64,000 nucleotides of DNA from an uncultured Actinomycetes bacterium (GTDB lineage Bacteria > Actinomycetota > UBA4738 > HRBIN12): contig CAVOIB010000002.1 of the NCBI GenBank assembly GCA_963695975.1, forward strand, positions 589,855 through 653,854, read 5' to 3'. Made by a program: the position numbers and the translations under genes. Of this stretch, positions 32,104 to 59,754 are shown piece by piece. Under the pieces are notes generated by a model. The model ran no database searches. It saw only the letters and a program-made list of their open reading frames with translations, and had not been told where the DNA came from. The first letter of the stretch is position 1. Every line of letters begins with the position of its first letter.

Positions 32104-33026
32104 CCGCCGATCCCCTCCGCGGCCACGGCCAGCCACCGATCCACAGGACGTTCGGCCATCGCACGAGCGAGTCGGTCGAAGTGGTTGTCGGCGTACTCGA
32201 CGTAGTCGATATCCAGCGTGGAGAGTCCCTGCTGGGCCACTCCCCACATCGCCTCACGGAAGTCCGACATGATCCTCATCAGACCAAGCCTCGCGCGGTC
32301 GACCTCCGTCACCTCGCCGAAGTAGTGCTTAAGCATCCGCTCCTGCGCGTCCTCGGAGAGACCGTTGTTGATCGACAGGTTGCCCAGGTCGAAGAAGGGA
32401 TCGCCCATGCCGGCGTACTCGTAGTCCACGAGCCACAGTCGGCCTGTGTCCCGGATGAAGTTGGGCGCCAACAGGTCGTTGTGGCAGGGCCGGTCCTCCA
32501 TGGGCGAGGCCTTGAACGCCGTCTCGATGCGCTCCGCCACCGAGTGCGCTCGCGCGTACTCGGCCGGCACGGTCACACCGCGGTCCTCCGCGATGGCCCG
32601 GTACGACTCCTCGATGCGGAACGCGGAGAACGTCCAGGGGAGCTGGGGCCCTGCGTGGATCGCTCGCACGACGGCGACGGCGTCTCCGAGCGTCGGCTCG
32701 GACTCCAGTTCGCCCTCCGCCAGCGAGTTCCCCGGGACCCACTGCGTCACCAGACATCCGAGATCCGGCATGAAGGCGACGACCTCTGGGCCCACCCCGG
32801 CGTCAGCTGCCGCGGTCGCGGCCAGACGTTCCGTCGATCGGTCGATCCCTAGGAGCTGGGTCTCCTTGTCGGAGACCCGAACGAAGAACGCTCCGGCGTC
32901 GGTCTCGACCCTGAAGTTGCGGTTCGTGCGCCCCTCGGCGATCGGGGTGATGACCCGCCCGGAGCCGGCCAGTTCGGGCACAGCGTCCAGCGCGGCTCTG
33001 AGCGCGGGATCGACCTGCCCCTCCAC
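32100..33026 (-). CDS. Choline/ethanolamine-kinase / aminoglycoside-phosphotransferase-family protein
   Basis: Brenner motif HNDLLAPN and DYEYAGMGDPFFDLGN, 308 aa. Confidence 0.7.
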   Translation of the reverse strand: MEGQVDPALRAALDAVPELAGSGRVITPIAEGRTNRNFRVETDAGAFFVRVSDKETQLLGIDRSTERLAATAAADAGVGPEVVAFMPDLGCLVTQWVPGNSLAEGELESEPTLGDAVAVVRAIHAGPQLPWTFSAFRIEESYRAIAEDRGVTVPAEYARAHSVAERIETAFKASPMEDRPCHNDLLAPNFIRDTGRLWLVDYEYAGMGDPFFDLGNLSINNGLSEDAQERMLKHYFGEVTEVDRARLGLMRIMSDFREAMWGVAQQGLSTLDIDYVEYADNHFDRLARAMAERPVDRWLAVAAEGIGG

Positions 33027-43972: not shown

Positions 43973-46900
43973 CTAGCGATCGTGAGCGAGCGCCTCAGCC
44001 TCGCGCTGCATCTCGGCCCGCTCCTCGAGCAGCGTGTTCAACGCGTGTGGTTCGAGCGGCCGGGCGAAGAGGAAGCCCTGTCCCAGGTCGCACTTCAGCT
44101 CCATCAGGCGTTCGAGCTGATCGGGGCGCTCGATCCCCTCGGCCACCGGTGTCAGATTGAGGATGCCCGCGAGCTCGATCACGGCTGCCGTGAGCGCCGA
44201 GGACTCCCCGCCCTCGCTCACCTCGTCGATGAAGGACTTGTCGACCTTCAAGATGTCTACGGGGAACCGTCGCACGTAGTTGAGCGAGGAATACCCGGTT
44301 CCGAAGTCATCGATCGCCAGCAGCACACCGAGCTGCTTCAGCTGCTTCAGCCGCTCGATCGCGAGCTCCATGTCCTGCATGACCATGCTCTCGGTGATCT
44401 CCAGGACCAGTGCTGATGGCTGCAACCTTGTCTCGTCGAGGAGATCCCGGACCTCGTCCACGATCTCCGGTCGCGCCAGCTGACGGGCCGACAGGTTGAC
44501 GGCCATGTGGAACGGCGGGTCCATCGGGAACCGGTCCTGCAGCTCGACCGCGTACCGTGCGGCCTGTTCGAGCACCCACCGGCCGATCGGCACGATCAGC
44601 CCCGTCTCCTCGGCGAGCGGGATGAACTCGAGCGGCTGGACCAACCCGCGCTCCGGATGGACCCAGCGGATCAGCGCCTCGACGCCGTTGATGCGCCCGG
44701 TTTCGAGCTCGATCACCGGTTGGTAGTGCAAGACGAACTCCTCGTGCTCGAGGGCGCGCTGCAGGTCCGCCTTCAACTCGAGGCGGCGGAGCGCCGTGTC
44801 GTGCATCTCGGGCTCGAACACCTGGTACCTGCCCTTGCCGCGCTCCTTGGCCATGTACATCGCCACGTCCGCGTTGCGGAGCAGTTCCTCCGCAGCGTCC
44901 TCGCCGGTCCCCGCCGTGCCGTCCGCGACCGCGATGCCGACGCTGGCTCGGACGAACACCTCCTTGCCCTCGAGCAGGAACGGCTCCTGGAGCATCTGCA
45001 TGATGCGTTCGGCGACGTCGGCGGCCTGGACTCCGTCGCCGCCATCCTCGAGCAGGATCGCGAACTCGTCGCCGCCCAAACGCGCGGCGGTATCGGCGGC
45101 GCGGAGCGTACCTTTCAAGCGTTCGCCGACCTCCGCTAGCAATCCGTCGCCCGCGGCGTGGCCGAGCGAGTCGTTGATCGTCTTGAAGTCGTCTAGGTCC
45201 ATGAACAGCACCGAGATCGGGCGTCGATCACGCTCCTGGCGTTCGATCGCGTGCAGGACACGGTCCCGGAAGAGCGCGCGGTTCGCGAGGTTCGTGATCG
45301 AATCGTGGAAGGCCTGGCGTTCGAGCTCCGCTTCGAACTGCTTGCGCTCGGTGATGTCTCGCGTGTTGAGGACGATGCCGCGCACGTTGGGGTCGTGGAG
45401 CAGGCTCGTGCGGAGCGTCTCGGTGAACAGGTACGACCCGCTCCGGTGGCGCAGGCGGAACTCTAGGAGGCTCGTGCTGCCCTCGCCCTCGATCGCAGAG
45501 GAGAGGAACGACAGGGCGCGTGTCTTGTCGTCGGGGTGGATCAGATCGATGAAGCGGCTCCCCTCCAACTCCTCGGGTTCGAACCCGAGGACGCGAGAGG
45601 CCGACGGACTGGCGTAGCGGACCACCGTGTCCGGCTCGATCACCGTCACGATATCGGAGGAGTTCTTCACCAGCGACGCGAACCGCGCCTCGCTCTGGCG
45701 GATCAGCAGGTCCTCGGTGAGCGCAGCGCTCTCCAAGGCGAGCGCGACCTGCGACGAGAGGGCCCGGAGGCTGTCGGTGACCGAGAGGCTCATCTCGAGC
45801 GGGGTCGCGACCACCATCAGGCCGCGGAACGCATCCCGCATGAAGATCGGGGCGACGAGCACCGACCCCTGGTCCTCGGGGGGGAGCGCCAGCGGATCAC
45901 GCAGGGTGCTCTCGTAGGACCTGACGACGTATGCGTCGCGCTCCATAAGCCGTTGTCGCTTCCATTCTTGCAGGACCGAGAACGACAGGTGCAGGCCAAG
46001 GACGTCGGCGGTTCCACCTTCGGCCGCCACCACGACCAGTTCGTCGGGTGCGTCGCCGACGACCTCGCAGAACCGTACCGCCGCATCCGCGCCGGCGAGC
46101 GTCCGTGCAGCCTCGATCGCCGCCTGGTGGATCGCATCGCGGTTCGTCGCCGTGACGAGGGCGAGCCCCGCCTCACGGAGCGCTCGCTCGCGCGCGGCCG
46201 ACTGCTCCTGTGTCCGAACCAGGCCGGCCATCCTCGCGATCACCAAGAGGAACAGCACCACGGAGGCGGCGATCACCACGAGCTCGTCGGTGCGTGCGAT
46301 AGCGGAGGCAGGCGTGTCCGCCAGGCGCGAGAGCAGCATCGCGCCGGTGATCGGGGCGATCAGCGACACGATCGCCAACACGACAAGCCGGAAACGAGAC
46401 AGCGCCCGGCGGACCTCGGTCGAGCGTTCGGAGAAGAGCTTCGATGCAGGATGCAGCGCCGCCGCGCCCAACAACAGGTAGAACGCGGCCCAGCCTCCCT
46501 CTAGGTAGCCCGTCTGGTTGTCGTATCCACCGTGCAGTCCGTACCAGCCGTAGATCGCGTCGGTCACGAACAGCGCCAACACCGCCGCGAGCACCAGATA
46601 GAAGGCGCCGCTGCGACGGCCGCCGCCGACCGCCAGACGGATCGCTCCCGTGATCAGCATCAGGTCGAACAGCGGGTAGCCCATCGATACCAGCTTCTGC
46701 AGCGAGGTGAGGGAGGAGTCGTGCGAGTAAGGCGCGATGAGGAACACCCACGAGAGGACCCCGACGCCGACCGCGACGATCAGCGAATCGATCATGCTGT
46801 CGCGGTCGCGGCCCGGGTTGCGGCGCCGCATCAGAAGGAGCATGCCCGCGAGCAGGCATGGGTAGACCGAGAGGTAGAACACGTCGCCGATCGACGGGTA

Positions 46901-47161
46901 GGGAAGCTCCGTGCCGAAGAACCGCTCGTAGTTGTACGTGATCACGTCGCCGGCCACGAAGAGGGCCTGGCCGAGCGCGATCAAGATCCACGGCAGCTTG
47001 TACTCCACGTGGTTCATGCGAAGCGCGATCAGGATCACGATCGGGGATGAGATCGCGATGAGGTTCAGTAGGGCGCCGATGCGCAGTCCCGGCACGGTGA
47101 GGAAGGCCACGGTCGTGATCGACCCCAGCAACAGGTACACGAGCCACGCTCGTGACTTCAT
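43973..47161 (-). CDS. Membrane sensor, GAF, PAS, GGDEF and EAL cyclic-di-GMP turnover protein
   Basis: N-terminal polytopic domain of ~290 aa. Intact GGDEF (RLGGDEF) and EAL (EALIRW...DDFGTGYSSL) motifs. 1062 aa. Confidence 0.85.
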   Translation of the reverse strand: MKSRAWLVYLLLGSITTVAFLTVPGLRIGALLNLIAISSPIVILIALRMNHVEYKLPWILIALGQALFVAGDVITYNYERFFGTELPYPSIGDVFYLSVYPCLLAGMLLLMRRRNPGRDRDSMIDSLIVAVGVGVLSWVFLIAPYSHDSSLTSLQKLVSMGYPLFDLMLITGAIRLAVGGGRRSGAFYLVLAAVLALFVTDAIYGWYGLHGGYDNQTGYLEGGWAAFYLLLGAAALHPASKLFSERSTEVRRALSRFRLVVLAIVSLIAPITGAMLLSRLADTPASAIARTDELVVIAASVVLFLLVIARMAGLVRTQEQSAARERALREAGLALVTATNRDAIHQAAIEAARTLAGADAAVRFCEVVGDAPDELVVVAAEGGTADVLGLHLSFSVLQEWKRQRLMERDAYVVRSYESTLRDPLALPPEDQGSVLVAPIFMRDAFRGLMVVATPLEMSLSVTDSLRALSSQVALALESAALTEDLLIRQSEARFASLVKNSSDIVTVIEPDTVVRYASPSASRVLGFEPEELEGSRFIDLIHPDDKTRALSFLSSAIEGEGSTSLLEFRLRHRSGSYLFTETLRTSLLHDPNVRGIVLNTRDITERKQFEAELERQAFHDSITNLANRALFRDRVLHAIERQERDRRPISVLFMDLDDFKTINDSLGHAAGDGLLAEVGERLKGTLRAADTAARLGGDEFAILLEDGGDGVQAADVAERIMQMLQEPFLLEGKEVFVRASVGIAVADGTAGTGEDAAEELLRNADVAMYMAKERGKGRYQVFEPEMHDTALRRLELKADLQRALEHEEFVLHYQPVIELETGRINGVEALIRWVHPERGLVQPLEFIPLAEETGLIVPIGRWVLEQAARYAVELQDRFPMDPPFHMAVNLSARQLARPEIVDEVRDLLDETRLQPSALVLEITESMVMQDMELAIERLKQLKQLGVLLAIDDFGTGYSSLNYVRRFPVDILKVDKSFIDEVSEGGESSALTAAVIELAGILNLTPVAEGIERPDQLERLMELKCDLGQGFLFARPLEPHALNTLLEERAEMQREAEALAHDR

Positions 47162-47215: not shown

Positions 47216-48514
47216 TTAGACGTCGGCCGTATGGGGGACGTGGGCGAGGTCCTCGGACCGTTCGACCGAACGCATCCCGGGCAGGAACAAGAACGAGAAC
47301 GTCACGATGGCCCCCAGGATCCCCGCACCGACGAGCGTGGCTCGCGCGCCGATGGCACTGGCCACGGGGCCGGTGAGCGCGTATGAGACGGGCAGGAGGC
47401 CGATCGACACGAACCAGTCGAGGCTCGATACCCGGCCAAGGAGCTGACGCGGGACCAGGCGCTGCTTCGTCGTCGCCCACACGATCGTGCCCGCCGTCTC
47501 GAGCGCGTTGAACAGGAAGCACGCGAGCATGGCCTGCCACGGCAGGTGCGCCAATCCGTAGCCGGCGACCGCGAGCGTGGACAGTGTCCAGGCGACGTAC
47601 ATGAACGTGATGAACTTCCGAGGTGCTCCGCGGTGCCCCATGATCAAGGCTGCGCCGATCGCGCCGACCCCGCCCATCGCCAGGATGATCCCGAGCGTGA
47701 GTGGGTTGCCTCCCCAGTCGGTCTTGACCAACAACGGCAACAGGACCTCCTGGGGACCGATGAACAAGAGATAGGCGAACGTCGCCGCGAGAAGGGTGCC
47801 CCACAGCCACACACGCGCGCGCACGAAGCGGAACCCTTCACGCACGTCTTCGAATGCGGTCCCGCTGCCGTCGAGGGGTGCATCGAGCGGGTGCGGACTC
47901 ATCATCAGCAGCGCGACGATCGAGGCACCGAACGTCGCGGCATCCATCAGGAACGCGCCACCGACGCTCCACCCCACGAGGGCCCCGCCGAGGGCGGGGC
48001 CGAGCAGGCGCCAGGCGGCCGGCCTGACGAACTGGTCGACCGAGTTCGCCTGGGTGAGCAGGTCGGATGCGACCAGATCGGGGACGATCGCGTCGAACGC
48101 CGGACCGAAGAACGCGGTCCCGCCTCCGTAGATCGCGGCGAGGACCATGAGGTGCCAGAGCTCGATGTGCCCCGTCAGCGAGAGCCATCCCATCGCGGCG
48201 ACCGACAGCCCGCGAACCAGGTCGGCGAGCAGCAGCACCCGGCGTCGGTCGAAGCGATCGCTCACGACGCCACCAGCCAGCAGGAAGATCACGTGGGGGA
48301 TGGTCATCGCCAGACCGACGAGCGAAAGGGCGGTCGGCGTGTCCGAGAGCTCGTACACCTGCCAGGCGAGGGCCACCAGGAAGATGCCGTCGCCGATCAG
48401 CGAGATGGTCATGCCCGACCAGAGCAGTCGGAAGTCGCGGTGTCGAAGCGGTTCGAGGATGACCGGGAGTCGCCGGCGCGACCTGCTCGGCTTCCCCTCT
48501 GGATCGGACCTCAT
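47216..48514 (-). CDS. MFS transporter
   Basis: Twelve TM segments. Start trimmed to MRSDPEG because the 490-aa track ORF overlaps the histidine-kinase gene. Confidence 0.75.
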   Translation of the reverse strand: MRSDPEGKPSRSRRRLPVILEPLRHRDFRLLWSGMTISLIGDGIFLVALAWQVYELSDTPTALSLVGLAMTIPHVIFLLAGGVVSDRFDRRRVLLLADLVRGLSVAAMGWLSLTGHIELWHLMVLAAIYGGGTAFFGPAFDAIVPDLVASDLLTQANSVDQFVRPAAWRLLGPALGGALVGWSVGGAFLMDAATFGASIVALLMMSPHPLDAPLDGSGTAFEDVREGFRFVRARVWLWGTLLAATFAYLLFIGPQEVLLPLLVKTDWGGNPLTLGIILAMGGVGAIGAALIMGHRGAPRKFITFMYVAWTLSTLAVAGYGLAHLPWQAMLACFLFNALETAGTIVWATTKQRLVPRQLLGRVSSLDWFVSIGLLPVSYALTGPVASAIGARATLVGAGILGAIVTFSFLFLPGMRSVERSEDLAHVPHTADV

Positions 48515-48581
48515 CGACCCCATCGACCTCTCTGTGTCGGCCGGCGTCCAGACCGGGCCCTTTCCGACTTCCCCCGAACGA

Positions 48582-50741
48582 CTACGCGGGTCCGAAGGTG
48601 TCGACGGCGGCCGGGACGAGTCCACGTTGCGGTTCGCCGTCGTCCCCTGTCCCCGCGTCGCCCTCTCCCGCGGAGGGGAGATAGACACGGAACGAGGCCC
48701 CGCCGCCTTCCCGCTCCTCGACCCACGCCCGCCCGCCGTGGAGCTCGGCGAACCGAGTCACGAGCGAGAGGCCGATGCCGACGCCCGGGTTGTGACGGAC
48801 GACCTCGTTCCCCTGGCGGAACGGTTCGAAGATCGAGTTGCGGATGTCTTCAGGGACGCCAGGCCCAGCGTCCTCCACCAGGATGAGCACGCCGCTCGCG
48901 TCCTCGCTCGCACCGACCCAGATCGGCGTACCGGGGGGTGTGTAGCGGATCGCGTTCGCGACGAGGTTCTCGACGATCCGTTCGACCTGTGCCGCATCGA
49001 CGTTCGCGGGAACGGGATCGGTCACGGTGAGCTCGATCGGATGGCTATCTGAGGCCGTTTCCTGGAGGACCCGAGCGAGGATCTGTGTCATGTCCACGTG
49101 GGCGCGGTTGGGTGCCACGATGCCGCGGGACATGCGGTCGAGGTCGAGCAGGTTCGTCAGCAGGCGGTGGAGCTTGCGGGCGTTGGCTGCGATACGCCCG
49201 ACCAGGTCGTGCTCGTCCTCCCGGGAGATCTGCTCGCGGCCGAGGCTCCCCTCCAGCGTCAGGGCGCAGCCGAGGATGCTGGTGAGCGGCGTCCGAAGGT
49301 CGTGAGACACGGCCTGCAGGAACGAGTTCTGCATCTCGTGGAGCGCTCGAAGACGCGTGGCGGCCTCCTTCTCGGCGTCGAGCGCCTTGACCAGCTGGGC
49401 TTCGGCCTGCTTCTGCTCAGTGACGTCGTACATCACGCCCTGCAGGCTGACCGGCCGTCCGGTCTCGTCCTCGAGCGCCTCTGCCTCCTCGTGGATCCAG
49501 ATCACCTGGCCGTCCTTGCCGACGATCCGATACTCACAGGCCATCCGGGGCTCGCCGTTCAGCAGCCGGAGTTCGGCGTCCAACGCGCGCTCGCGATCCT
49601 CGGGGAGGATGCGCTCACGCCACAGTTCCGCCTGTCCTGTCCATTCATCCTGACTGAAGCCGAGGATCGATTCGATCTTCGGGCTGATGTAGCGCCACGC
49701 CGCATCCTTGCCGAACTCGGCGATGTAGACGACGGCCGGAAGGCCTTCGACGAGCGACCGGTACTTCGCCTCGGCTTCGCGCAGCTGCCGCTCCGCCCTG
49801 CGGTACTTCCCGATGTCGACCATCAGGCCGTTCAGCCGTACCAAGACCAGGACGAACAGCACGGCGGAGGCGCCGGCGAGGACGGCGACGTCGACGTTGT
49901 CGCCTCGGAGTGCCTGGATCACGAGGACCGTCGGCGCGATCAGTGACGCCCCGGCCAGCAACGCGAGGCGCCGGCGAGGGTGCGCCAGGTCGCCCTCGGG
50001 CGTGGGTTCGTCGAGGTTCGCCATCGAGGGGTGCAGGGCCGCTGCCCCCCACAACAGGTAGAAGAAGCCCCAGCCCAACTCGAGGAGCCCGGTCGAGTTG
50101 TCGTACGACCCGTGCAGCAGGATCCACGTGTAGATCGTGTCGGTGGTGAAGAGCACCGTGATCGAGGCGATCATCAGGTAGAACGCGGGGGGCCGGCGTC
50201 CGCGGCCGACCGCGAGGCGTACCGCTACGCCGAACAACAGCATGTCCATGATGGGGTAGGCCATCGAGGTCAGCTTCTGGATCAGCGGGATCGATTGGTC
50301 GTGCGCGTAGGGGGCCAGCAGGAAGACCCAAGAGAGCGTCCCGACCCCGATGGCGATGATCAGCGAGTCGATGAGACTGGCGCGGTCGCGGCCGGGGCTG
50401 CGCCGACGAACCAGCAGCAACACTCCGGCGATCAGCGGGGGATAGACGCTCAGGTAGAGCAGGTCGCCGATCGACGGGAACGGCGGCGCGGTCCCGAAGA
50501 AGCGCTCGTAGTTGTACGTGATCACATCGCCGGCGACGAAGAGCGTCTGCCCGATCGCGAAGAGGTACCAGGGCAGACGCTGGCGAGGTTCGTGCAGCCT
50601 CGCCGCGATGACGATGGCGATCGGTGCTGAGAGTCCGATCAGGTTGAACAGTGGGCCGACGCGGATCGGGTGGACGAACACGAACGCGGTAAGCACCGCG
50701 CCGCCGATGGTCAGGTAGAGGGCCCACGCCCGAGCTTTCAT
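48582..50741 (-). CDS. Membrane sensor, PAS and histidine kinase (orphan)
   Basis: Same N-terminal polytopic domain as the 43973..47161 protein. HisKA H-box SHDLRTPL; HATPase N, G1 and G2 boxes. No response regulator is adjacent. Confidence 0.85.
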   Translation of the reverse strand: MKARAWALYLTIGGAVLTAFVFVHPIRVGPLFNLIGLSAPIAIVIAARLHEPRQRLPWYLFAIGQTLFVAGDVITYNYERFFGTAPPFPSIGDLLYLSVYPPLIAGVLLLVRRRSPGRDRASLIDSLIIAIGVGTLSWVFLLAPYAHDQSIPLIQKLTSMAYPIMDMLLFGVAVRLAVGRGRRPPAFYLMIASITVLFTTDTIYTWILLHGSYDNSTGLLELGWGFFYLLWGAAALHPSMANLDEPTPEGDLAHPRRRLALLAGASLIAPTVLVIQALRGDNVDVAVLAGASAVLFVLVLVRLNGLMVDIGKYRRAERQLREAEAKYRSLVEGLPAVVYIAEFGKDAAWRYISPKIESILGFSQDEWTGQAELWRERILPEDRERALDAELRLLNGEPRMACEYRIVGKDGQVIWIHEEAEALEDETGRPVSLQGVMYDVTEQKQAEAQLVKALDAEKEAATRLRALHEMQNSFLQAVSHDLRTPLTSILGCALTLEGSLGREQISREDEHDLVGRIAANARKLHRLLTNLLDLDRMSRGIVAPNRAHVDMTQILARVLQETASDSHPIELTVTDPVPANVDAAQVERIVENLVANAIRYTPPGTPIWVGASEDASGVLILVEDAGPGVPEDIRNSIFEPFRQGNEVVRHNPGVGIGLSLVTRFAELHGGRAWVEEREGGGASFRVYLPSAGEGDAGTGDDGEPQRGLVPAAVDTFGPA

Positions 50742-50807: not shown

Positions 50808-52109
50808 TCAGGGGGTGGTGCCGATGGTCTGGCGGAGCTGGAACCGATCGCGGAGCGTTCCCAGGACCGAGATCAGATGGTCGATCTCCTCGGGGGTGTT
50901 GGCCGCGGTCACCTGGATCCGGAACCCGACCTCGTCCTTCGGGACGAGCGGATACGCCGCCATCGTCACGTAGATCCCTTGGTCGTAGAGGTATCGACCG
51001 ACCTCGTCGATCTCGTCGTGGTCGGCGAGCGACACCTCGATGATCGGGAACCCGCTCTCGTTCGGCGTGCGGATCCCCAAGCGATCGAGCGCGTCCAGCA
51101 CGCGGTGGGTCATCTCCCACATCGTGAACCGCGCGAGGTCGCCGCGCCTGCGGTTCACCTCGAGGCCGGCGATCGTCGTGGCGAGCGAGGCGACGGGCGA
51201 TGGCCCCGAGTAGAGGTACGGCGGCGCGAGTACCTTCAGCGCGTCCTTCAACCTCGTCGGGAGCGCCATGAAGGCCAGGAGCGAGGAGTACGACTTCGAG
51301 AATCCGGCCACCATCACGACGTGTTCATAGCCGACGCCTTGGTGACGGAAGACGCTGTTCCCCTTGGTGCCGTAGTCGCAAAGCTCGTCCGGCGAGCGCT
51401 CGCCGATGACGCCGAACCCATGGGCATCGTCCAGGTAGAGCAGCGCGTCGTGCGCGCAGGCGATGCGGGCGAACTCCCCGACGTCGGGCGCGTTGCCGGT
51501 CATCGAGTTGACCCCGTCCATGGCGATCACGCGGGGCAGGCCTGGGTCGCTCGCGGTGATGAGCTCCTCCAGGTGCGCCGCGTCGTTGTGTCGGAATCGG
51601 ACGACCTGTGCTCCGTGACCTGCGGCGACCATGGCGCCGTCGTAGATCGTCTTGTGGGCGCGCCCGTCCAGGAATACCGTGCCGTCGCCGACCAGCACGG
51701 GGATCGTCGACATGTGGATGTGGGTGATCGTCGGGAGCAGGAGCACGTCCTCGCAGACGAGGAGGTCGGTCATCTCCTCCTCGATCTCCTCGTAGAGCCG
51801 TGGGCTGCCGAGGAGTCGCGACCAGCTGGGGTGGGTTCCCCACTTCGCCAGATAGTCGGGGACCGCGGCGATGATCTCCTCGTCCAGGTCGAACCCCAGG
51901 TAGTTGCACGAGGCGAAGTCGGTGAGCCAATGATCGCCGATCCTGATCTTCCGGCCGACCTGTTCGTCGATCACGGCATCCACCATCGGGTGCTCGTGCT
52001 TCAGACGGGTGAGATCGGAGGTCGTGGCGACCCAGCGGTCAAGCCAGCCGTCACCCTGCCGCCTGCGCGGCTTGCCGTTCGGGGACGGCTCCACCTGGGC
52101 ATCCGACAT
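50808..52109 (-). CDS. Alpha-oxoamine synthase family PLP enzyme (BioF/serine-palmitoyltransferase-like)
   Basis: Fold-type I with PLP lysine context VMVAGFSKSY and DDAHGFGVIG. Start taken as MSDAQ; the ORF begins at 52220. Confidence 0.75.
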   Translation of the reverse strand: MSDAQVEPSPNGKPRRRQGDGWLDRWVATTSDLTRLKHEHPMVDAVIDEQVGRKIRIGDHWLTDFASCNYLGFDLDEEIIAAVPDYLAKWGTHPSWSRLLGSPRLYEEIEEEMTDLLVCEDVLLLPTITHIHMSTIPVLVGDGTVFLDGRAHKTIYDGAMVAAGHGAQVVRFRHNDAAHLEELITASDPGLPRVIAMDGVNSMTGNAPDVGEFARIACAHDALLYLDDAHGFGVIGERSPDELCDYGTKGNSVFRHQGVGYEHVVMVAGFSKSYSSLLAFMALPTRLKDALKVLAPPYLYSGPSPVASLATTIAGLEVNRRRGDLARFTMWEMTHRVLDALDRLGIRTPNESGFPIIEVSLADHDEIDEVGRYLYDQGIYVTMAAYPLVPKDEVGFRIQVTAANTPEEIDHLISVLGTLRDRFQLRQTIGTTP

Positions 52110-52327
52110 CCGGCGTCGGATCTGCCCTCGGGGTCTGCCGTTCGACGCTCCGTTATCGGTCGACGGGAGTTCCATGGAATACCCACATCGGCGCATCCCC
52201 ACGCCGACTTGAAGGGGCACGGGGGGTGACTCCGCCCCCGTCCATCTGGGGGAGTCCGTCTGGTGGTGCGCCCGGCCTCGCCGTAGACTCGGCCCTTCCG
52301 CGAGGCCGAAGACGATGGGGGAGCGCG

Positions 52328-53686
52328 GTGCGCGCGATCGACCGGTCGAGGATCCACGACCTGATGGAGCGTGAGCGGCAGACGTTCCGTGAACGGCATC
52401 CTCGATGCGGTGCGCTGGCGGAGGAGGCCAAGGCCTCGCTCCTCTACGGCGTGCCGATGAACTGGATGGTCCGCTGGCCGGGCGACTGGCCGGTGTTCGT
52501 CGATCGGGCGGAGGGCGCGCGCTTCACGGACGTCGACGGGAACACCTACGTCGATCTCTGCCTCGGTGACACCGGCGGCATGGCCGGACACGCGCCGAAG
52601 GCCGCGGTCGAGGCGATCGCCGAGCAGGCCGCCCGTGGGATCACGCTGATGCTCCCGACCGAGGACGCGGCGTGGGTGGGCTCGGAGATGGCTCGGCGCT
52701 TCGGTCTCCCGTACTGGCAATTCTGCCTGACGGCGACCGACGCGAACCGCTTCGTGATCCGTTGGGCGCGGGAGGTCACCGGCCGTCCGAAGATCGTCGT
52801 GCATAACTGGAACTACCACGGCTCGGTCGACGAGACGTTCGCGCGGTTGGACGACGGCGGAAACGTCCGGGCCCGCGAGGGCTTGGTTGGGCCGCCGGTC
52901 CCGTTGGACGTGACGACCAAGGTGGTTGAGATCAACGACCTCGATGGTCTGGAGGCCGTCTTGAGGGCGGGCGACGTGGCATGTTGCCTCTTCGAGCCCG
53001 CGCTCACGAACATCGGGATCGTCCTGCCCGATCCGGGCTACCACGACGGCGTCCGCGACCTGTGCTCGAGGAACGGGACGCTCCTCGTGATCGACGAGAC
53101 CCACACGATCTGCGCCGGCCCTGGCGGATGCACGAAAGCGTGGGGTCTCCGCCCGGACATCGTGACGATCGGTAAGACGCTCGGCGCGGGGATCCCGAGC
53201 GCCGCCTACGGCATGACCGAAGACGTGGCGCGCCGGATCGTGGAGCACACCGACTTCCAGCACATCGACGTCGGCGGCACGGGCGGGACGCTCGCCGGGA
53301 ACGCCCTATCGTTCGCCGCGATGCGGGCGACGCTCGGTCAGGTCCTCACCGACGAGGCGTTCGTGCAGATGATCGCGCTCGGCGAACGGTTCGAGCGCGG
53401 TGTGGCGGATGTCATCGCGTCGCGCGAGCTGCCGTGGCATGTGACGCGTCTTGGGTGCCGAGTGGAGTACCTGTTCCGGCCGGATGCGGCCAGGAGCGGC
53501 GCTCAAGCGGCGGCCGGGCAAGACGAAGAGCTCGATCCCCTGATCCATCTCTACCTGTTGAACCGAGGGATCTTGATCACCCCGTTCCACAACATGGCGC
53601 TGATGTCCCCGGCGACGACCGCCCAGGATGTGGACGCGCACACCGAGACGTACGCGCAAGCTGTCGACGAGCTGGTGGGAGGTTGA
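52328..53686 (+). CDS. Class-III (GSA/BioA-like) aminotransferase
   Basis: PLP lysine TIGKTLGAG, VIDETHT and HNWNYHGS motifs. Start uncertain: GTG at 52328 or ATG at 52364. Confidence 0.75.
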   Translation: MRAIDRSRIHDLMERERQTFRERHPRCGALAEEAKASLLYGVPMNWMVRWPGDWPVFVDRAEGARFTDVDGNTYVDLCLGDTGGMAGHAPKAAVEAIAEQAARGITLMLPTEDAAWVGSEMARRFGLPYWQFCLTATDANRFVIRWAREVTGRPKIVVHNWNYHGSVDETFARLDDGGNVRAREGLVGPPVPLDVTTKVVEINDLDGLEAVLRAGDVACCLFEPALTNIGIVLPDPGYHDGVRDLCSRNGTLLVIDETHTICAGPGGCTKAWGLRPDIVTIGKTLGAGIPSAAYGMTEDVARRIVEHTDFQHIDVGGTGGTLAGNALSFAAMRATLGQVLTDEAFVQMIALGERFERGVADVIASRELPWHVTRLGCRVEYLFRPDAARSGAQAAAGQDEELDPLIHLYLLNRGILITPFHNMALMSPATTAQDVDAHTETYAQAVDELVGG

Positions 53687-53688
53687 CC

Positions 53689-54057
53689 GTGACCGACGCG
53701 AGGATCGCGTACGTGCTGCTGGATTCCACCGACCCTGCCGCACTCGTCCCGTTCTGGACCGAGCTGCTTGGAGTGGGGGTCGCGGCGACCGTGGACGAGG
53801 GGGCCTTCGTGGTGTTGGATGCCGCGGCCGACGGCCCCCCCGCGCTCGCGTTCCAGCGCGTCCCTGAGTCGAAGTCGGGGAAGAATCGCATGCACCTCGA
53901 CCTGGTCGTGGACGACCTGGAAGCTGCGACCCAGCGGATCACCGAGATGGGCGGCGTCTGGCTCGACGGCGAGACGCGCGAGATCGGCGGCTACCGCTGG
54001 CGGTGCATGGCCGACCCCGAGGGTAACGAGTTCGACATCGTTCCGGACGACAACTAG
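53689..54057 (+). CDS. VOC/glyoxalase-family protein
   Basis: 122 aa. Metal-ligand pattern MHLDLVVDD and C-terminal PEGNEFDIV. GTG start 2 nt after the aminotransferase stop. Confidence 0.65.
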   Translation: MTDARIAYVLLDSTDPAALVPFWTELLGVGVAATVDEGAFVVLDAAADGPPALAFQRVPESKSGKNRMHLDLVVDDLEAATQRITEMGGVWLDGETREIGGYRWRCMADPEGNEFDIVPDDN

Positions 54058-54072
54058 TCTGGGATAGACTAG
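54054..54072. repeat. Palindrome CTAGTCT-GGGAT-AGACTAG (copy 3 of 3)
   Basis: Contains the TAG stop of the VOC gene on the + strand and the TAG stop of serC on the - strand. Confidence 0.6.
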
Positions 54073-55172
54073 CCTGCGGTCGCAGCGAAATCCCACATGA
54101 AGTCGGCGAGCGCTCGCGCCCCCTCGATGGGCATGGCGTTGTAGATGGAGGCACGGATCCCGCCGACGCTCCGGTGCCCCTTCAGTTCGGCCATGCCGCG
54201 GGCGGCCGACTCCGCCACGAAGCGACGTTCGTGCGCCTCGTCGGGCAGCCGGAACGTGACGTTCATGAGGGAGCGCGATCCCGCCCGCGCATGGCCTCGA
54301 TAGAAGCCCTCGCTCCCATCGATCGCGTCGTAGATCAAGCCCGCCTTCTCACGGTTGATGGCGAGCTGCGCCTCGAGGCCGCCAACATCGTCCTTCAGCC
54401 AGCGCGTGACGAGCGTCAGCACGTAGATCGCGAACACCGGTGGCGTGTTGTGCATGGATGCCGATGTGGCGTAGGTGCGGTAGTCGAGCATCGTCGGCAG
54501 CCCGTCGGGCACACGATCGAGCATATCTTCGCGAACGACCGCCACGGTGACGCCGGCCGGTCCGGCGTTCTTCTGCGCGCCCGCGTAGAGCACGCCGTAC
54601 GGCTTCAGGTCCACGGGCCGCGAGAGGAAGTCGGATGATGCGTCGCAGACCAGTGGCACGCCATCGGGAACTGCGGGTGTGTCGGGGAACTCGACGCCCT
54701 GGATGGTCTCGTTCGACGTGACGTGGACGTAAGCGGCCGCGTCGTCGAGGACAGCGCCGAGCTCCTCGTCACCGGGCACGCGGACGAACCCCTCGGCCTT
54801 CCCGGACCACACCCGGCGGACCGGACCCTCGCGTTCGGCTTCGACGACGGCCTTCTCGCTCCAGGTCCCGGTCACGACGTGATCGGCGGACCGCGGGCGG
54901 CCTCGGAGCAGGTTCATCGCGACCATCGAGAACTGCAGCGTGGCGCCGCCTTGACAGAACAGGACGTGATGGCTGTCGGGGATCGACAGCAGCGCCCGGA
55001 GGTTCGCCTCGGCCTCCCCGATCACGCCCTCGAACCACGGGCTGCGATGCGAGACCTCGAGGGGTGAGGCGCCGAGCCCAGGGAGCGAGATCAGGTCGCG
55101 CTGCACCTCCTCGAGAACCTTGAGCGGAAGGATCGCCGGTCCGGCAGAGAAGCTGTAGACGCGGTCGCTCAT
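54069..55172 (-). CDS. serC: Phosphoserine aminotransferase
   Basis: Class-V aminotransferase, 368 aa. FSAGPA N-terminus and PLP lysine context GAQKNAGPAG. The 461-aa track ORF was trimmed. Confidence 0.85.
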   Translation of the reverse strand: MSDRVYSFSAGPAILPLKVLEEVQRDLISLPGLGASPLEVSHRSPWFEGVIGEAEANLRALLSIPDSHHVLFCQGGATLQFSMVAMNLLRGRPRSADHVVTGTWSEKAVVEAEREGPVRRVWSGKAEGFVRVPGDEELGAVLDDAAAYVHVTSNETIQGVEFPDTPAVPDGVPLVCDASSDFLSRPVDLKPYGVLYAGAQKNAGPAGVTVAVVREDMLDRVPDGLPTMLDYRTYATSASMHNTPPVFAIYVLTLVTRWLKDDVGGLEAQLAINREKAGLIYDAIDGSEGFYRGHARAGSRSLMNVTFRLPDEAHERRFVAESAARGMAELKGHRSVGGIRASIYNAMPIEGARALADFMWDFAATAG

Positions 55173-55214
55173 CCAGGACCAGGGTATCGTGACTCCCCGT
55201 TCGAAAGGCTCGAC

Positions 55215-56219
55215 ATGGCGTACAAGCGGATCTTGTTCGGCACCGATGGTTCGGCGTCCGCCCGGGCCGCTGGCGCGGTCGCCGCAGCTCTTGCGAAGGC
55301 AGGCAAGGCGCAACTGATCGTTGCGTGCGCGTTCGCCAAACCGACCGACGCGGAACGCGTGGTCGCCGCCGGCGTCGAGGAGGCGGAGGCGGCCGGTGTC
55401 CGCCGGGTCGAGGGGGAGAGCCGCGCCGGCCTCCCGGCCGACGCGTTGATCCAACTTTCGGACGAGCGCGATGTCGGATTGCTGGTCGTCTCGGGCGGCA
55501 GCGGCGGCAAGGGGCTCGGATCGGTGGCGAATCGGCTCGCCTTGCGTTCTCCTCGAGACGTCCTTCTGGTGATCGGCTCGGCGTCGACGGACGCGGATGC
55601 GCCGGTCTATCGACGGGTGGTGATCGCGACCGACGGTTCATCCACGGCGGATCGCGCCGCGCGCAAGGGATACGAGCTCGCCGAGACGCTAGGCGTGCCG
55701 GTCACGATCGTCTTCGTCGGGCACCCGAAGACGGGCGAGCTCGTGACGCAGGACACGATCGCGACGTATGCGGGTGAGGTGCCGACCGACGTGATGCTCC
55801 GAGAGGGACAGCCTGCGGCGCAGATCCTGGCGGCCGCCGACGAGGCGGACGCGGGCGTGGTGGTCGTCGGGAACAAGGGGATGACGGGCGCCAAGGGATT
55901 CCTGCTCGGATCCGTGCCGCAAGAGGTGGCCGAGGGATCCACCCGAGACGTGCTGATCGCCCGCACGGTCACGCAGATCGTCTCCGATCTCTCGCGGGGT
56001 GAGGGTGGGATCGTCGAGCGCGCAGGCGAGAAGATGGCCGTCTTCGTCGACGATGCTGGTGAACTCCACGTGATGAGCGCGCGCTGCACGCACATGGGAT
56101 GCACGGTCGCATGGAACCCGGGGGAAGGGACGTTCGATTGTCCCTGTCACGGGTCGCGGTTCGGCCCGATTGGCGATGTCGTGAACGGCCCGGCGGCGCG
56201 TCAGCTTCCGCCCGCCTGA
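55215..56219 (+). CDS. Tandem universal-stress-protein (UspA) domains fused to a C-terminal Rieske [2Fe-2S] domain
   Basis: Two Usp ATP-binding folds (VVVGNKGMTGAKGFLLGSV). C-terminal box I CTHMGC and box II CPCHGS. Confidence 0.7.
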   Translation: MAYKRILFGTDGSASARAAGAVAAALAKAGKAQLIVACAFAKPTDAERVVAAGVEEAEAAGVRRVEGESRAGLPADALIQLSDERDVGLLVVSGGSGGKGLGSVANRLALRSPRDVLLVIGSASTDADAPVYRRVVIATDGSSTADRAARKGYELAETLGVPVTIVFVGHPKTGELVTQDTIATYAGEVPTDVMLREGQPAAQILAAADEADAGVVVVGNKGMTGAKGFLLGSVPQEVAEGSTRDVLIARTVTQIVSDLSRGEGGIVERAGEKMAVFVDDAGELHVMSARCTHMGCTVAWNPGEGTFDCPCHGSRFGPIGDVVNGPAARQLPPA

Positions 56220-56232
56220 CGGAGCTGATCGC

Positions 56233-56703
56233 TCAGAACGGCTGGAACATCATCAGGTAGAGGATCGCGAGCAATCCGATCACGCCGATCGTCGTGATCA
56301 GGTGCGCCTCGTTCGATCTAAGGAGTTGCTGGAGCTCCTCATCGGAGACCCGAGGTACCCCCGACGGCCGGACCTCGCACGCGGCGGTGACCCGCTGGAA
56401 GTAGGGCTTAGCGAGCACGGTCATCAAGGCGATCGTGATCAGCAGGATCAGGATCGAGGTCAAGAGCCACCAAGCCGAGAGCACGTGCAGCGAGATCGCC
56501 GTACCAACGCCGCCTACCACGAGCACACCGAGGGCGATGTACATCGGCTTGGTGGTCGTTCCGCTGAACGCGATCAGCCCTGCGATCTTCTGTCGATCGC
56601 GCTCGCCGCGGATCCGGTAGAGCACGACCAAAGACACGCCGTGCGCGCCGACGAACGCCAGCACGCCGGCGACATGCAGAAAGAGCCACCATTGCCAGGC
56701 CAT
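56233..56703 (-). CDS. Integral membrane protein, hypothetical (4 TM)
   Basis: 156 aa, hydrophobic helices, high GC3. Confidence 0.5.
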   Translation of the reverse strand: MAWQWWLFLHVAGVLAFVGAHGVSLVVLYRIRGERDRQKIAGLIAFSGTTTKPMYIALGVLVVGGVGTAISLHVLSAWWLLTSILILLITIALMTVLAKPYFQRVTAACEVRPSGVPRVSDEELQQLLRSNEAHLITTIGVIGLLAILYLMMFQPF

Positions 56704-56987
56704 GGGCGGCTCACCATACCGAACAGAGACGCGTTCAACCCGCGTCTTGCCCGCGGTGATGGTGGATCCGCAGGATATGACCTCTGGACCGGATCCCTCG
56801 GCGCAGATGTACCCGGTTCGGGAGGATCCCCCATCGGCGGCTCAGCGGCTGTTTCGACTCATGAGCGCCGAGCGCCCGGATCATGTCGGAGCGTGAACGG
56901 ATCCGCATCTCGATCCCCTCCTACCCGACCGTAGCGCGCGGCCGGAAACAGTGGCGGAGCCGAAGGTCCCGGCGATGGAGGGACCGC

Positions 56988-57836
56988 TCAGCCGCGATCG
57001 AGCGGACGCGTCAGGCAGGTCGGCCCACCATCGCCCTTCAGCGAGATCTCCTCGCCGCGGTAGGTGCGCACGTCGACTCCCGCGGCCTCCATCCGCCGCC
57101 GGGTCTCGTCGTTGCCCTCCAGGGCGAGCGCTATCCGAGGTCCGAGCGCGAGGACGTTCGGCCCCATCGTGTCGAACTCGTCGTCCGGCACCTCGACCAG
57201 GCGCACGTCTCGTTCCCGCAGGAGCTCCAGCAGACGCACCGGCATCATCGGCGGGAACGCCACGGCGAGGTCGACGTCGAGCGGCGAGATGAACGACAGC
57301 AGATGCAGGCATGCGTCCGGTCCTCGGTGGTGCGGCAGGTCGAAGACCACGACGTCGACGGAGGGCCCGAGCAGGGCTCGCAGCTGATCGAGCCCGTCGT
57401 CGTTGGTGCGATATCCGCGGCCGGCGAGCAGCGTGGACGGGTCGAGCCAGCAGAGGTCACCCCCCTCGACCGTGCCAGGGGGCTTAACGCTGCCGACGGT
57501 CGGGATGCCGGCGGTCGCGAGGTCGGTGGCGATCGCGTCGGGCTCGGCTCGCCTTTCGGGCTTGCCCGGCCGGAGCAGGATCGCGCCTGTGTCGGTCAAC
57601 AGGATCGGGTCGTACGTGTAGATCGCATCGGGGTCGCCCGGGACCGCGACCGCCCCGAGCAGCACCACGGCGCCCGCGCGTTCGAGCTCCGCCCGGAATG
57701 CAGCGTGTTCGTCGGAAGCTCGAGCCAGGTCGGGTTGTGCGTGCCAGCCGTAGGCACGCCACGCTTGCGAGTCGTCCGCCACGGGGTCGCGAACGTAGAC
57801 GCGATGCAGGGCGCCCGTCTGGTCCTGGATCGACAT
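56988..57836 (-). CDS. Amidinotransferase-superfamily hydrolase (dimethylarginine dimethylaminohydrolase / arginine-deiminase-like)
   Basis: 282 aa. The C-terminal catalytic Cys in GGPTCLTRPL is the hallmark of DDAH/ADI/AGAT enzymes. Confidence 0.6.
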   Translation of the reverse strand: MSIQDQTGALHRVYVRDPVADDSQAWRAYGWHAQPDLARASDEHAAFRAELERAGAVVLLGAVAVPGDPDAIYTYDPILLTDTGAILLRPGKPERRAEPDAIATDLATAGIPTVGSVKPPGTVEGGDLCWLDPSTLLAGRGYRTNDDGLDQLRALLGPSVDVVVFDLPHHRGPDACLHLLSFISPLDVDLAVAFPPMMPVRLLELLRERDVRLVEVPDDEFDTMGPNVLALGPRIALALEGNDETRRRMEAAGVDVRTYRGEEISLKGDGGPTCLTRPLDRG

Positions 57837-57859: not shown

Positions 57860-58429
57860 CTACGGCCGCGGTTCGCGCTCCACGATGGGCGAGACGGGCA
57901 GGATGAGGATGGAGGCAGGCTCCCCGTCCACCACGACAGCCTCGTCCGATGGAAGCTCCCGCGGCACGCCGGGGCCGGGAAGCACGTCGGCCGTGCCGGT
58001 GCTTGGGTGGCTGCGTCGAGACACCCGACGGGGGATCGTGCTCACGGTCGCGGGCTCGGGTTCCTCGGCGGCGACGCCGCAGGCCCGCTCGACCGCGAAG
58101 CCGAGGTCGCGCAGTACCTGCGAGGGGTCGACGGTCGCGTCGCCGCTGATCGGGATCACGGCCGGAGGCCAGACCAGCACGATCTTGGCGTCGGGCCGCA
58201 TCTCCCGTGTCAGGGCGACCGCCGTGGCGCCGATCCCATCGTCGAGCACGACCGCGTCCGGGTGGTGCACCGAGAGCACCTGCACGAGCTCAACCGTAGT
58301 GTGCGCCTCACCGAGTACGCGGAACCCTTCACCCTCCATGACGAAGCGGAGCAAGCCTCGACGCATCGGGTGACCCTCGCCGACGACGACTCCGATACGC
58401 GGGCGCTCGGGGGTGGCGTCGCGTTCCAC
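57860..58429 (-). CDS. Pseudo-receiver (degenerate REC-fold) protein with a Pro-rich tail
   Basis: (beta/alpha)5-like pattern RIGVVVGEG...DAVVLDDGI...KIVLVWP. The N-terminal acidic pair and conserved Lys are missing. Paralog of the N-terminus of the next gene. Confidence 0.45.
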   Translation of the reverse strand: MERDATPERPRIGVVVGEGHPMRRGLLRFVMEGEGFRVLGEAHTTVELVQVLSVHHPDAVVLDDGIGATAVALTREMRPDAKIVLVWPPAVIPISGDATVDPSQVLRDLGFAVERACGVAAEEPEPATVSTIPRRVSRRSHPSTGTADVLPGPGVPRELPSDEAVVVDGEPASILILPVSPIVEREPRP

Positions 58430-58560: not shown

Positions 58561-59754
58561 TCACAGGGGACGATGGCGGATCAGGAAGCGCCCGATCCCG
58601 TCGATGTGGACGGTTCCCACACCGCGGGCCACGAGCGATCCCTGGAGCCGCATCCTGAGATGACCGCCCGTGACCGTGAGGCGGACGGTGCCGTTGCCGT
58701 GCACGCGAACGTGCTCGTTAGACACGCTCTGCACCACCCCTTCGCCGTTCACCTTCACGACGCCGTCGGCCACCAGATGGACGAAGCCGTCGACGCGCAG
58801 GCGAAGGTCCCCCTCCGAGGACAGGCGGATCGTGCCGTCGGCCTGGACCTGGACCCGCCCCTCGTAGGTACCCGGCTGGTCGGTGGTGCCGCCCGTCTGG
58901 CCGCCGCCGCCGGGGGTCGGCAGCACGAGGTCGCCGACCGAGCCCACGATGCCTCGGATGGACACGGTCCGGTCGGCCAGGATGACGGCGCCGACCGCGG
59001 CACCGAGGGCAACACCCAGCAGGACGAGGGCGACCCCGAGCCACCAGCGACGCCGGCGTTCGGGTGCCGAAGTTCCCTGTTCGGGAGCCGTGAACACCCA
59101 CGACGGAGCGTCGGTCGGAGGTCTCAGCATCACACCCGAGAGTGCCTCGGGCACAACGACGATGGGCTCTTCGACCTCAGCTTCGGTTGCTGGAAACACG
59201 GTCGCGAGCGCCGCCCGTTCCGCCGCCGGGCCCGTCGCCTCGCTGGTTACCTCAGCCGGCGGTTCCTGCGGGAAGGGCAGGGTCGTCGTTTCGGCGGGGG
59301 GGAGCGGCTCGGCTTCGGGGACGACGATCACGTCCGGCACCGGCACTCGCGGCCTCTTCGGGCGGATCGATGGACCGCTGCCCATCACACGCTCGACCGC
59401 CGGCCCGAGCCCAGCCATCACCTCTGATGGCTCCAACCGGGCGTCCGCGCCGATGGCCGACACGCCTTTCGGCCAAACGAGGATCACTCGAGCCGACGGC
59501 AACACCTCGCGGATCATGCCCACGGCGCTCGCGTCTATCCCGTCGTCGAGGACAACGAGGTCGGGACGGTGCACCACGAGTTGTTGCGCGAGCTCCAACG
59601 TGGACGCTGCTTCGGAGACGACGATGTGGCCCTCGTTCTCCAAGACGAAGCGAAGCAGCCCTTTACGGGCCGACCGTCCTTCGCCGACCATCGCGCGAAC
59701 CCGCAGCTCACCCATGGTGTCTCGGCAGCCTACTTCGGGCTCCCCCGACGGCAC
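58561..59754 (-). CDS. Pseudo-receiver domain, Pro-rich linker, single TM and beta-solenoid (bactofilin-like) repeat protein
   Basis: N-terminal domain paralogous to 57860..58429. TM helix WWLGVALVLLGVALGAAVGAVIL, then G/V-rich repeats (GTVRLTVTGGHLRMRLQGSLVARGVGTVHIDG). Confidence 0.5.
   Translation of the reverse strand: MPSGEPEVGCRDTMGELRVRAMVGEGRSARKGLLRFVLENEGHIVVSEAASTLELAQQLVVHRPDLVVLDDGIDASAVGMIREVLPSARVILVWPKGVSAIGADARLEPSEVMAGLGPAVERVMGSGPSIRPKRPRVPVPDVIVVPEAEPLPPAETTTLPFPQEPPAEVTSEATGPAAERAALATVFPATEAEVEEPIVVVPEALSGVMLRPPTDAPSWVFTAPEQGTSAPERRRRWWLGVALVLLGVALGAAVGAVILADRTVSIRGIVGSVGDLVLPTPGGGGQTGGTTDQPGTYEGRVQVQADGTIRLSSEGDLRLRVDGFVHLVADGVVKVNGEGVVQSVSNEHVRVHGNGTVRLTVTGGHLRMRLQGSLVARGVGTVHIDGIGRFLIRHRPL

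Follow-up and report, generated by a model that had tools for sequence, protein, structure and literature searches.

A tandem universal stress protein bearing a Rieske domain, and its conserved membrane-protein neighbour, in uncultured Actinomycetota

What might a Rieske [2Fe-2S] domain be doing at the end of a universal stress protein (Usp)? Universal stress proteins are very widespread, and their biochemical jobs are largely unassigned. The question is raised by a gene at 55215..56219 (+) of a 64-kb stretch of DNA (64,000 nucleotides of one contig, hereafter the window) from an uncultured Actinomycetes bacterium, which encodes two Usp domains and one Rieske domain in a single polypeptide. 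A prediction made earlier from the sequence alone had singled out this architecture as a possible case of redox-gated stress signalling; it did not mention the gene next door, which encodes a membrane protein and which we find to be conserved beside the fusion gene. Our results suggest that the two genes form a two-gene system, and we give an about even chance to the reading that the Usp-Rieske protein binds nucleotides, carries electrons in the cytoplasm by means of its Rieske centre and serves a transmembrane path together with this membrane protein, a divergent relative of the DUF2269 family. The parts of the fusion gene are the following.

55215..56219 (+): Usp-Usp-Rieske gene, a single open reading frame (ORF) with an ATG start, 334 amino acids (aa) plus stop
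55215..55574 (+): Usp domain 1 (aa 1-120), from the alignment and the fold match to TTHA0350 and Rv2623
55608..55964 (+): Usp domain 2 (aa 132-250), where the strongest Pfam Usp match covers aa 181-250
55869..55913 (+): ATP-type motif GNKGMTGAKGFLLGS (aa 219-233, G-x2-G-x9-G-S), from the motif scan
55980..56216 (+): short Rieske [2Fe-2S] domain (aa 256-334), from Pfam and Foldseek, ending in GPAARQLPPA
56085..56102 (+): Rieske box I, C291-T-H293-M-G-C296, with ligands C291 and H293 and disulfide cysteine C296
56139..56156 (+): Rieske box II, C309-P-C311-H312-G-S314, with ligands C309 and H312, disulfide cysteine C311, and Ser314

The fusion protein and its family

That two Usp domains and one Rieske domain are joined in one chain is borne out by the Pfam domain search and by the homologues alike. 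Usp (PF00582) is matched at E 8.4e-34 with 117.6 bits (cut-off 24), over three stretches falling in the two domains listed above, and Rieske (PF00355) at E 5.7e-16 with 58.6 bits (cut-off 20.3), over aa 256-331 and model positions 8-84 of 88; the AlphaFold2 (AF2) model of the 334-aa protein has a pLDDT of 85.7 and a pTM of 0.84. A homologue search of 5.8 billion proteins returned 1519 matches, of which the best 120 were inspected. These 120 stem from many independent contigs in the NCBI, ENA, JGI and Logan assemblies, are 58-100% identical to the window protein and nearly all full length, and both Pfam domains are found in 118 of them, an agreement far beyond chance.

Among the circumstances that would undo it, the original prediction had named an assembly or sequencing frameshift joining a Usp gene to a separate Rieske gene. 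Nothing was found in favour of such an artefact. The Rieske match is absent from P0055 and P0057 (81% identity, on long contigs), and frameshifts interrupt the two paired genes in L015 (a single metagenome-assembled genome, MAG; 6001..7491), all of which are losses rather than joins, and are probably assembly errors and not natural truncations. On the other hand, the same continuous frame is found in more than 120 proteins from independent assemblies and in 17 species genomes. Both termini are uniform in 29 of 29 aligned members (alignment A1), with M-x-Y-K-R-I at the start and GPAxRxLxPA followed by the stop at the end, and in the linker between Usp and Rieske R250, T251, Q254, G262, G264 and G265 are invariant. 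The GC content at third codon positions (0.82) is typical of a genuine gene, and GC by codon position is as in real genes. We therefore reject the artefact, whose probability we regard as negligible.

How far does this architecture spread? When 1.84 billion cluster representatives were scanned exhaustively with phmmer, only 48 reached E<=1e-30, and the whole architecture is present in about 15 clusters at 50% identity; a survey of 185,579 species genomes (GTDB) found it in 17, all of them uncultured Actinomycetota, Actinomycetes or Acidimicrobiia MAGs. A look at taxonomic spread had been proposed along with the original prediction, and its outcome is that the Usp-Usp-Rieske family is narrow, and conserved in uncultured soil Actinomycetota. 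Matches that seemed to widen this range were rejected, those in Hyphomicrobiales (L023) and Allokutzneria (L051) being Rieske proteins with an FAD-dependent oxidoreductase domain (DAO) instead, and that in Collierbacteria (L020) being a stand-alone Rieske protein of about 95 aa whose alignment had crossed stop codons. In a full-text literature search no description of a Usp-Rieske protein turned up and co-mentions of both terms were incidental, in agreement with the earlier statement that no described example was known; the databases do contain hundreds of such sequences, annotated 'universal stress protein'. The architecture is thus known to databases and undescribed in the literature, a variant in which the Usp regulatory scaffold is combined with a Rieske electron carrier.

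Residues 1 to ~260 match the tandem Usp proteins TTHA0350 of Thermus thermophilus and Rv2623 of Mycobacterium tuberculosis (3ab7/3ab8, 3cis) in Foldseek, at E 9e-15 to 4e-14 and target-normalised TM-scores (TMt) of 0.74-0.81, the range over the three structures together being 0.70-0.81. Like these, the Usp-Rieske protein has two Usp alpha/beta domains per chain; unlike it, they have neither an iron-sulfur domain nor a conserved membrane partner, and its own domain 1 has lost the canonical nucleotide loop. There the loop is shortened (SGGSGGK-GLGS) and departs from the canonical G-x2-G-x9-G-[ST], which in a motif scan of 132 family members was found in domain 1 of only five, all of them divergent (below ~45% identity to the window protein). 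The motif of domain 2 is canonical in 68 of the 132, the window protein included, and I137, A138, D140, G141, S142, G219, N220, K221, G222 and M223 of this domain are invariant in alignment A1. Of the two domains that had been described earlier as ATP-binding, only domain 2, which appears to be of the nucleotide-binding type, keeps the canonical motif; the binding of ATP or cAMP itself is predicted. The best single-domain Usp matches in the PDB include MSMEG_3811 (5ahw; a cAMP complex according to Foldseek) and Rv1636 (1tq8). In one relative with a fused reductase (L142, 1416..3737), Usp domain 2 (aa 152-257) gives a weak match, below cut-off (E 8.9e-4), to PF01012, the electron-transfer-flavoprotein domain.

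The Rieske boxes had been placed within the C-terminal ~60 residues and assigned to the bc1/b6f type, with its disulfide cysteines. Both points hold: the two boxes lie inside the last 44 residues, and the nearest matches are b6f PetC, PetC3 and kustd1480. No substitution of the four ligands, of either disulfide cysteine or of Ser314 occurs in any of the 132 scanned members. CPCH is followed by GS[RK][FY], whose aromatic position is Phe in 99 members and Tyr in the other 33. We infer that the Usp-Rieske protein binds a [2Fe-2S] cluster. Mutagenesis of bc1 has linked the pattern of disulfide cysteines, serine and aromatic residue to Rieske redox potential, and the residues found here predict an intermediate-to-high potential. 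Beta-strand 1 of the first Usp domain begins at residue 4, and the alignment and the AF2 model reveal neither a signal peptide nor a membrane anchor, which argues that the protein, its disulfide-type Rieske domain included, is cytoplasmic.

With PetC3 (Synechocystis, 5cxm), kustd1480 (Kuenenia, 9rk3), the Chlorobaculum Rieske protein (8hn2) and b6f PetC it has in common the cluster-binding subdomain, that is, CTH(L/M)GC...CPCHGS and the Pro loop (phmmer E 3e-14 to 4e-12, 35-38% identity, 71-81 columns; Foldseek TMt 0.35-0.62 over 71-81 columns). Those proteins are membrane-anchored or exported and act on the outer side, whereas the Usp-Rieske protein appears cytoplasmic and is fused. Although it carries the high-potential signature of b6f and bc1 Rieske proteins in C296, C311 and S314, it was rejected as a member of either family (NF045928 62.7 against 250 bits, TIGR01416 41.8 against 97.4, NF050121 28.8 against 275), only the cluster-binding part aligning in these partial NCBIfam matches. 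As a b6f/bc1 subunit it was rejected also on its N terminus, which is a Usp strand and not an anchor or Tat signal, and on its neighbours, serC and the DUF2269-like gene; no cytochrome b gene adjoins it. A Rieske-type ferredoxin of oxygenases (HcaC, NF042948) was rejected in the same way, with 23.4 against 150 bits and disulfide cysteines present.

In every unfused member the chain stops three residues past the Leu of the Pro loop, while the solved Rieske relatives run 15-37 residues further, so that their complete three-sheet fold is not reached here. The same short form is found stand-alone at ~95-100 aa (L020, L075, P0357, P0383) and at the end of DAO-Rieske proteins, and its occurrence in both settings argues for a natural short subtype, a mobile and self-sufficient Rieske module. 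Its closest relatives in sequence are the modules of YhfW-type DAO-Rieske proteins (50-61% identity over aa 250-334), which likewise are cytoplasmic and have a C-terminal Rieske domain of the disulfide type that ends just past the Pro loop; their N-terminal part is an FAD-dependent oxidoreductase and not Usp. The function of YhfW is not assigned (PMC7317962).

A membrane protein encoded beside the fusion

The gene at the 3' side of the fusion encodes a small membrane protein, and with the spacer between them it gives the following features.

56220..56232 (no strand): spacer of 13 bp between the convergent stop codons, from the sequence
56233..56703 (-): gene for the partner, a 156-aa four-helix membrane protein, putatively a divergent DUF2269 protein, from a hidden Markov model (HMM), adjacency and AF2
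56641..56676 (-): segment of helix 1 with invariant His10 and His21-Gly22, from alignment A2
56332..56370 (-): loop RPSGVPRVSDEEL (aa 112-124) between helices 3 and 4, from alignment A3

With the HMM of this membrane family and tblastn, such a gene was found adjoining Usp-Usp-Rieske in 17 of the 17 GTDB loci, and not one of 63 loci with a different kind of Rieske protein had it; among the latter, DAO-Rieske loci had no DUF2269-like neighbour within 6 kb. The pairing is found also at L081-L086, where the Usp-Rieske proteins are more divergent (37-48% identity) and the neighbour is kept, and at L088-L090, which brings the total to 26 of 27 Usp-Rieske loci. Approached from the other side, two membrane-family proteins looked up directly each had a convergent Usp-Rieske neighbour, and in 80 metagenome loci found with the membrane-family profile a Usp-Rieske gene is immediately adjacent in 57; 20 of the 80 are cut too short on one or both sides for full judgement, and only three informative loci, all at the divergent end of the family, are without it.

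The pair is met in three gene orders: convergent, membrane gene first on the same strand, and membrane gene second on the same strand. The convergent order is found in 32 loci, with 9-41 nucleotides (nt) between the stops, and in the window, with 13 nt; in L014, L016, L017 and L082-L085 the stop codon of one gene overlaps the start codon of the other or is 1-9 nt away from it. No terminator-like site was found in the spacer 56220..56232. Other synteny, that of serC and of the genes resembling arginine deiminase (ADI) and response-regulator receivers, is seen only in close relatives, and a functional role for these neighbours was rejected on that ground.

What kind of protein is the partner? 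Its AF2 model (pLDDT 88.7) has long helices at 2-33, 51-72, 78-108 and 131-152. Of 14 relatives, 11 match DUF2269, for which we know of no assigned function, at E<=1 (best 1.8e-9), and the fused relatives L081 and L083 match it with 39 bits (cut-off 28); the window protein would thus belong to a divergent DUF2269 subfamily. Weaker Pfam matches among the 14 are to HemJ/UPF0093 in four (best E 0.0099), to CopD in one (E 8e-4) and to DUF2214, and the partner at L081 matches UPF0093 at E 0.0011. In alignment A2, which spans 30-71% identity, His10, His21-Gly22, Met94 and Met151 lie within helices and are invariant down to 30% identity, and His10 and His21-Gly22 are present also in the relatives fused to carrier domains that are described below. 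Going by this conservation, His10, His21, Met94 and Met151 may be ligands of a cofactor.

The loop RPSGVPRVSDEEL is the other conserved part, with R112, P113, G115, V116, P117, R118, S120, D121 and L124 invariant in alignment A3. Attachment of haem c takes place outside the cytoplasm, and one relative carries a cytochrome c at its C terminus, which places the C terminus outside and, given four helices, the N terminus outside too. From these external C-terminal fusions and the positive-inside rule, the two Arg/Lys-rich loops, RPSGVPRVSDEEL among them, should face the cytoplasm; this loop is therefore predicted to be cytoplasmic and is a candidate docking site for the Usp-Rieske protein. Three loci have a second, diverged DUF2269-like copy between serC and the Usp-Rieske gene (L002 5143..5817, L004 1126..1593, L006 5176..5730), at 37-38% identity to the window membrane protein and with a different cytoplasmic loop (TRWADGSFTMTDDEL).

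A possible electron path and its rivals

The relatives of both proteins are repeatedly fused, or closely linked, to other redox modules, which are these.

P0246, L016, L142, L143: Pyr_redox_2 and Reductase_C (ferredoxin-NAD(P)+ reductase) after the Rieske domain, in chains of 773-785 aa
P0244: Fer4_19 and two CDGSH domains at the N terminus of the Usp-Rieske protein
P0248: a second Rieske domain on the Usp-Rieske protein
L085: a gene for an FMN-dependent dehydrogenase (FMN_dh), translationally coupled downstream
L016, L083: C-terminal Cupredoxin_1 on the membrane protein, 43-45 bits (cut-off 27), with H...C-x2-H-x2-M
18 of the 80 metagenome loci: the same type-1 copper motif on the membrane protein
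L081: cytochrome c with a CAECH motif on the membrane protein
L119: a CxxCH motif on the membrane protein

The fused cupredoxins keep the complete ligand set of type-1, electron-transfer copper. A further protein search with the A2 profile gave close family members only and no additional fusions. The reductase fused to the Rieske domain is of the type found in three-component oxygenase chains (BphA4/putidaredoxin reductase), enzymes which reduce small [2Fe-2S] ferredoxins; the ferredoxins of oxygenases are low-potential and without disulfide cysteines, unlike Usp-Rieske, and no oxygenase is linked to the pair. Besides these, L082 has a type-II NADH dehydrogenase gene (Pyr_redox_2 and NDH2_C; 7415..8653, -) convergent to a Usp-Usp-Rieske-Rieske gene, L016, whose Usp-Rieske protein is reductase-fused, has the gene of a receiver-adenylate cyclase on its upstream side and the quinone-related one of a Usp-ABC1/UbiB-type kinase on its downstream side (939..2219 and 8384..11695), and L083 has a gene for a cyclic-nucleotide-binding protein directly downstream (8341..8778). 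The cAMP-related neighbours at L016 and L083, taken beside the match to a cAMP-binding Usp, are suggestive.

With an NAD(P)H flavoenzyme and the Rieske domain on the inside, blue copper or c-type haem on the outside and the DUF2269-like helices between them, the simplest reading is an electron path from inside to outside. A soluble cytoplasmic scaffold of tandem Usp domains, bearing the short bc1/b6f-like Rieske domain at its C terminus, would accept single electrons from cytoplasmic flavoprotein dehydrogenases, the reductase being directly fused in many relatives, and would pass them to the membrane protein at its conserved cytoplasmic loop. The latter would relay them to high-potential acceptors outside, such as the cupredoxin or cytochrome c fused to it in relatives, perhaps by way of a cofactor held by His10, His21, Met94 and Met151, and binding of ATP or cAMP to the Usp scaffold could gate the flow. 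Exporting electrons along both the redox gradient and the membrane potential would dissipate energy, which may offer a rationale for such a nucleotide-binding gate. The window would then hold a minimal version of the system, its donor and its acceptor being separate proteins. Spelled out in full, as a nucleotide-gated transmembrane conduit running from NAD(P)H through the reductase and Usp-Rieske to a haem or metal held by these four residues of the DUF2269-like protein, and on to an external cupredoxin or cytochrome c, the scheme is tentative and on balance somewhat unlikely to be right in all its parts.

A published precedent for the general plan is PuuD, a membrane urate oxidase with a DUF989 membrane domain, distantly DUF2269-like, and an external cytochrome c, N-out and C-out (PMC4562309). 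PuuD and the partner protein are alike in their helical membrane domain, in this topology, in conserved cytoplasmic loops and, in relatives of the partner, in a C-terminal external carrier; PuuD has eight helices and oxidises its metabolite directly, whereas the partner has four and, presumably, a separate cytoplasmic Rieske protein for redox partner. For haem b in a weakly similar family the precedent is HemJ, a dimeric membrane b-type haem protein of UPF0093 (PMC13564367). HemJ/PgdH2 (protoporphyrinogen oxidase) and the partner are both small helical membrane proteins with weak Pfam similarity, but this similarity is far below the family cut-off and the gene context is different.

Several observations weigh against the proposed electron path. 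The window proteins themselves have neither a fused reductase nor an external carrier domain, tblastn finds no ferredoxin reductase, CDGSH protein or extra Rieske partner in the 64-kb window, and none of the window ORFs has a CxxCH or type-1 copper motif. The window membrane protein has no Pfam match, DUF2269 (PF10027) not being matched even at E<=10, and the invariant His and Met residues would suit the handling of Cu(I) equally well. Since the Rieske domain has no counterpart of the C-terminal strands of solved domains, its stability depends on contacts. One Usp-Rieske gene, that of L087 (on a 3.6-kb contig), is without a membrane neighbour; all loci come from a single actinobacterial lineage, so that shared ancestry inflates their counts; and the window genes, with 13 bp between convergent stops, are not co-transcribed and might even interfere with each other transcriptionally.

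Could the protein be a redox sensor instead, in line with the signalling role first proposed for it? The Rieske cluster, or the cytoplasmic disulfide, would report oxidants, O2/NO or the redox state of a pool, altering nucleotide or partner binding by the Usp domains and so giving a stress signal, with the membrane protein as an anchor or as the target under regulation. Usp proteins are generally regulators, and the fold is nearest to Rv2623 and TTHA0350, while the best single-domain Usp structural matches include cAMP-bound MSMEG_3811; under the reducing conditions of the cytoplasm, a Rieske domain of the disulfide type could also serve as a thiol switch. Signalling genes do lie near some loci (the receiver-adenylate cyclase and a histidine kinase at L016, the cyclic-nucleotide-binding protein directly 3' at L083, response regulators at L084 and L087), but they are not conserved between loci, and what recurs as fusions are electron donors and carriers, not kinases, DNA-binding domains or GGDEF. 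That the fusions are electron-transfer modules, and that the neighbour often carries a cupredoxin or cytochrome c, favours electron transfer over sensing; redox-gated stress signalling thus finds little specific support, and we consider a sensor unlikely, though not far-fetched.

The membrane protein might otherwise be a CopD-like transporter or reductase for copper (or iron), with Rieske electrons reducing Cu(II) or Fe(III) on the external side, so that the metal can be imported or cuproproteins can be loaded. The invariant His and Met inside the helices, the weak Pfam matches to CopD (E 8e-4) and DUF2214 and the frequency of the cupredoxin fusion would fit with this, yet the CopD similarity is confined to one of 14 members, the fused cupredoxins have the complete type-1 ligand set and not a CopC-type site, and some relatives bear cytochrome c in their place. 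Metal handling, which we find improbable, would in any case still require transmembrane electron transfer, and is in that respect a sub-case rather than a true alternative. We are as doubtful that the two genes have nothing to do with each other, the neighbour being kept by shared ancestry and the Usp-Rieske protein acting alone, for example as a soluble ferredoxin for an oxygenase. The common lineage makes the observations not fully independent, the window genes are convergent, and the window encodes the alpha subunit of a Rieske oxygenase (6162..7322), which has to be supplied with electrons. Adjacency, however, persists where the rest of the synteny is gone and through three rearrangements, down to 31-37% identity, several loci have coupled stop and start codons, and the fusions of the two proteins are complementary and lie on opposite sides of the membrane.

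Other genes of the window and the meaning of the pair

The Usp-Rieske gene and serC (54069..55172, -) have divergent start codons 42 bp apart (55173..55214). No sigma-70-like promoter was found in this interval, and in a scan of 54900..57000 for promoters and terminators nothing exceeded the shuffled background; GAAAGG lies 7-12 nt 5' of the Usp-Rieske ATG. Three aminotransferases are encoded within 50808..55172. Further upstream of the Usp-Rieske gene lie those of a PAS-GGDEF-EAL protein (43973..47161, -, 1062 aa) and of a PAS histidine kinase (48582..50741, -, 719 aa), the latter ORF overlapping that of a transporter of the major facilitator superfamily (47216..48688) by ~100 nt, which suggests that one of the two start codons is probably mis-set.

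Beyond the pair, the products of two genes at 57860..58429 (-) and 58561..59754 (-) resemble receiver domains only weakly and in part (E 0.014 and 0.051), and Pfam finds nothing else in them; in relatives their N termini are 47-73% similar to each other, and they are syntenic in L001, L003, L006 and L015. The oxygenase alpha subunit named above (6162..7322, +) is a 386-aa ring-hydroxylating protein (Rieske and Ring_hydroxyl_A; CSHRG...CPYH), and no gene for a reductase or ferredoxin was identified beside it. Genes for the catabolism of amines and amino acids are plentiful in the window (29665..32247, -; 10840..12534, +; 7189..8205, +; 56988..57836, -), their products being a DAO and GCV_T protein of the dimethylglycine/sarcosine dehydrogenase type, an amine oxidase-like flavoprotein, an arginase-family protein and an amidinotransferase/ADI-like protein; the three aminotransferases already mentioned belong with them.

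If the proposed electron path is correct, DUF2269 would gain its first biochemical role, and the pair would represent a new class of minimal transmembrane electron carrier. It would likewise give a Usp protein a concrete mechanistic job, provide an example of an electron-transfer step under nucleotide control, and amount to a minimal electron-export route in abundant uncultured soil Actinomycetota. By tying the Usp scaffold to a redox centre, to a membrane partner and to the donors and acceptors seen in relatives, the findings replace the loose label of 'stress protein' by a hypothesis that can be tested directly.

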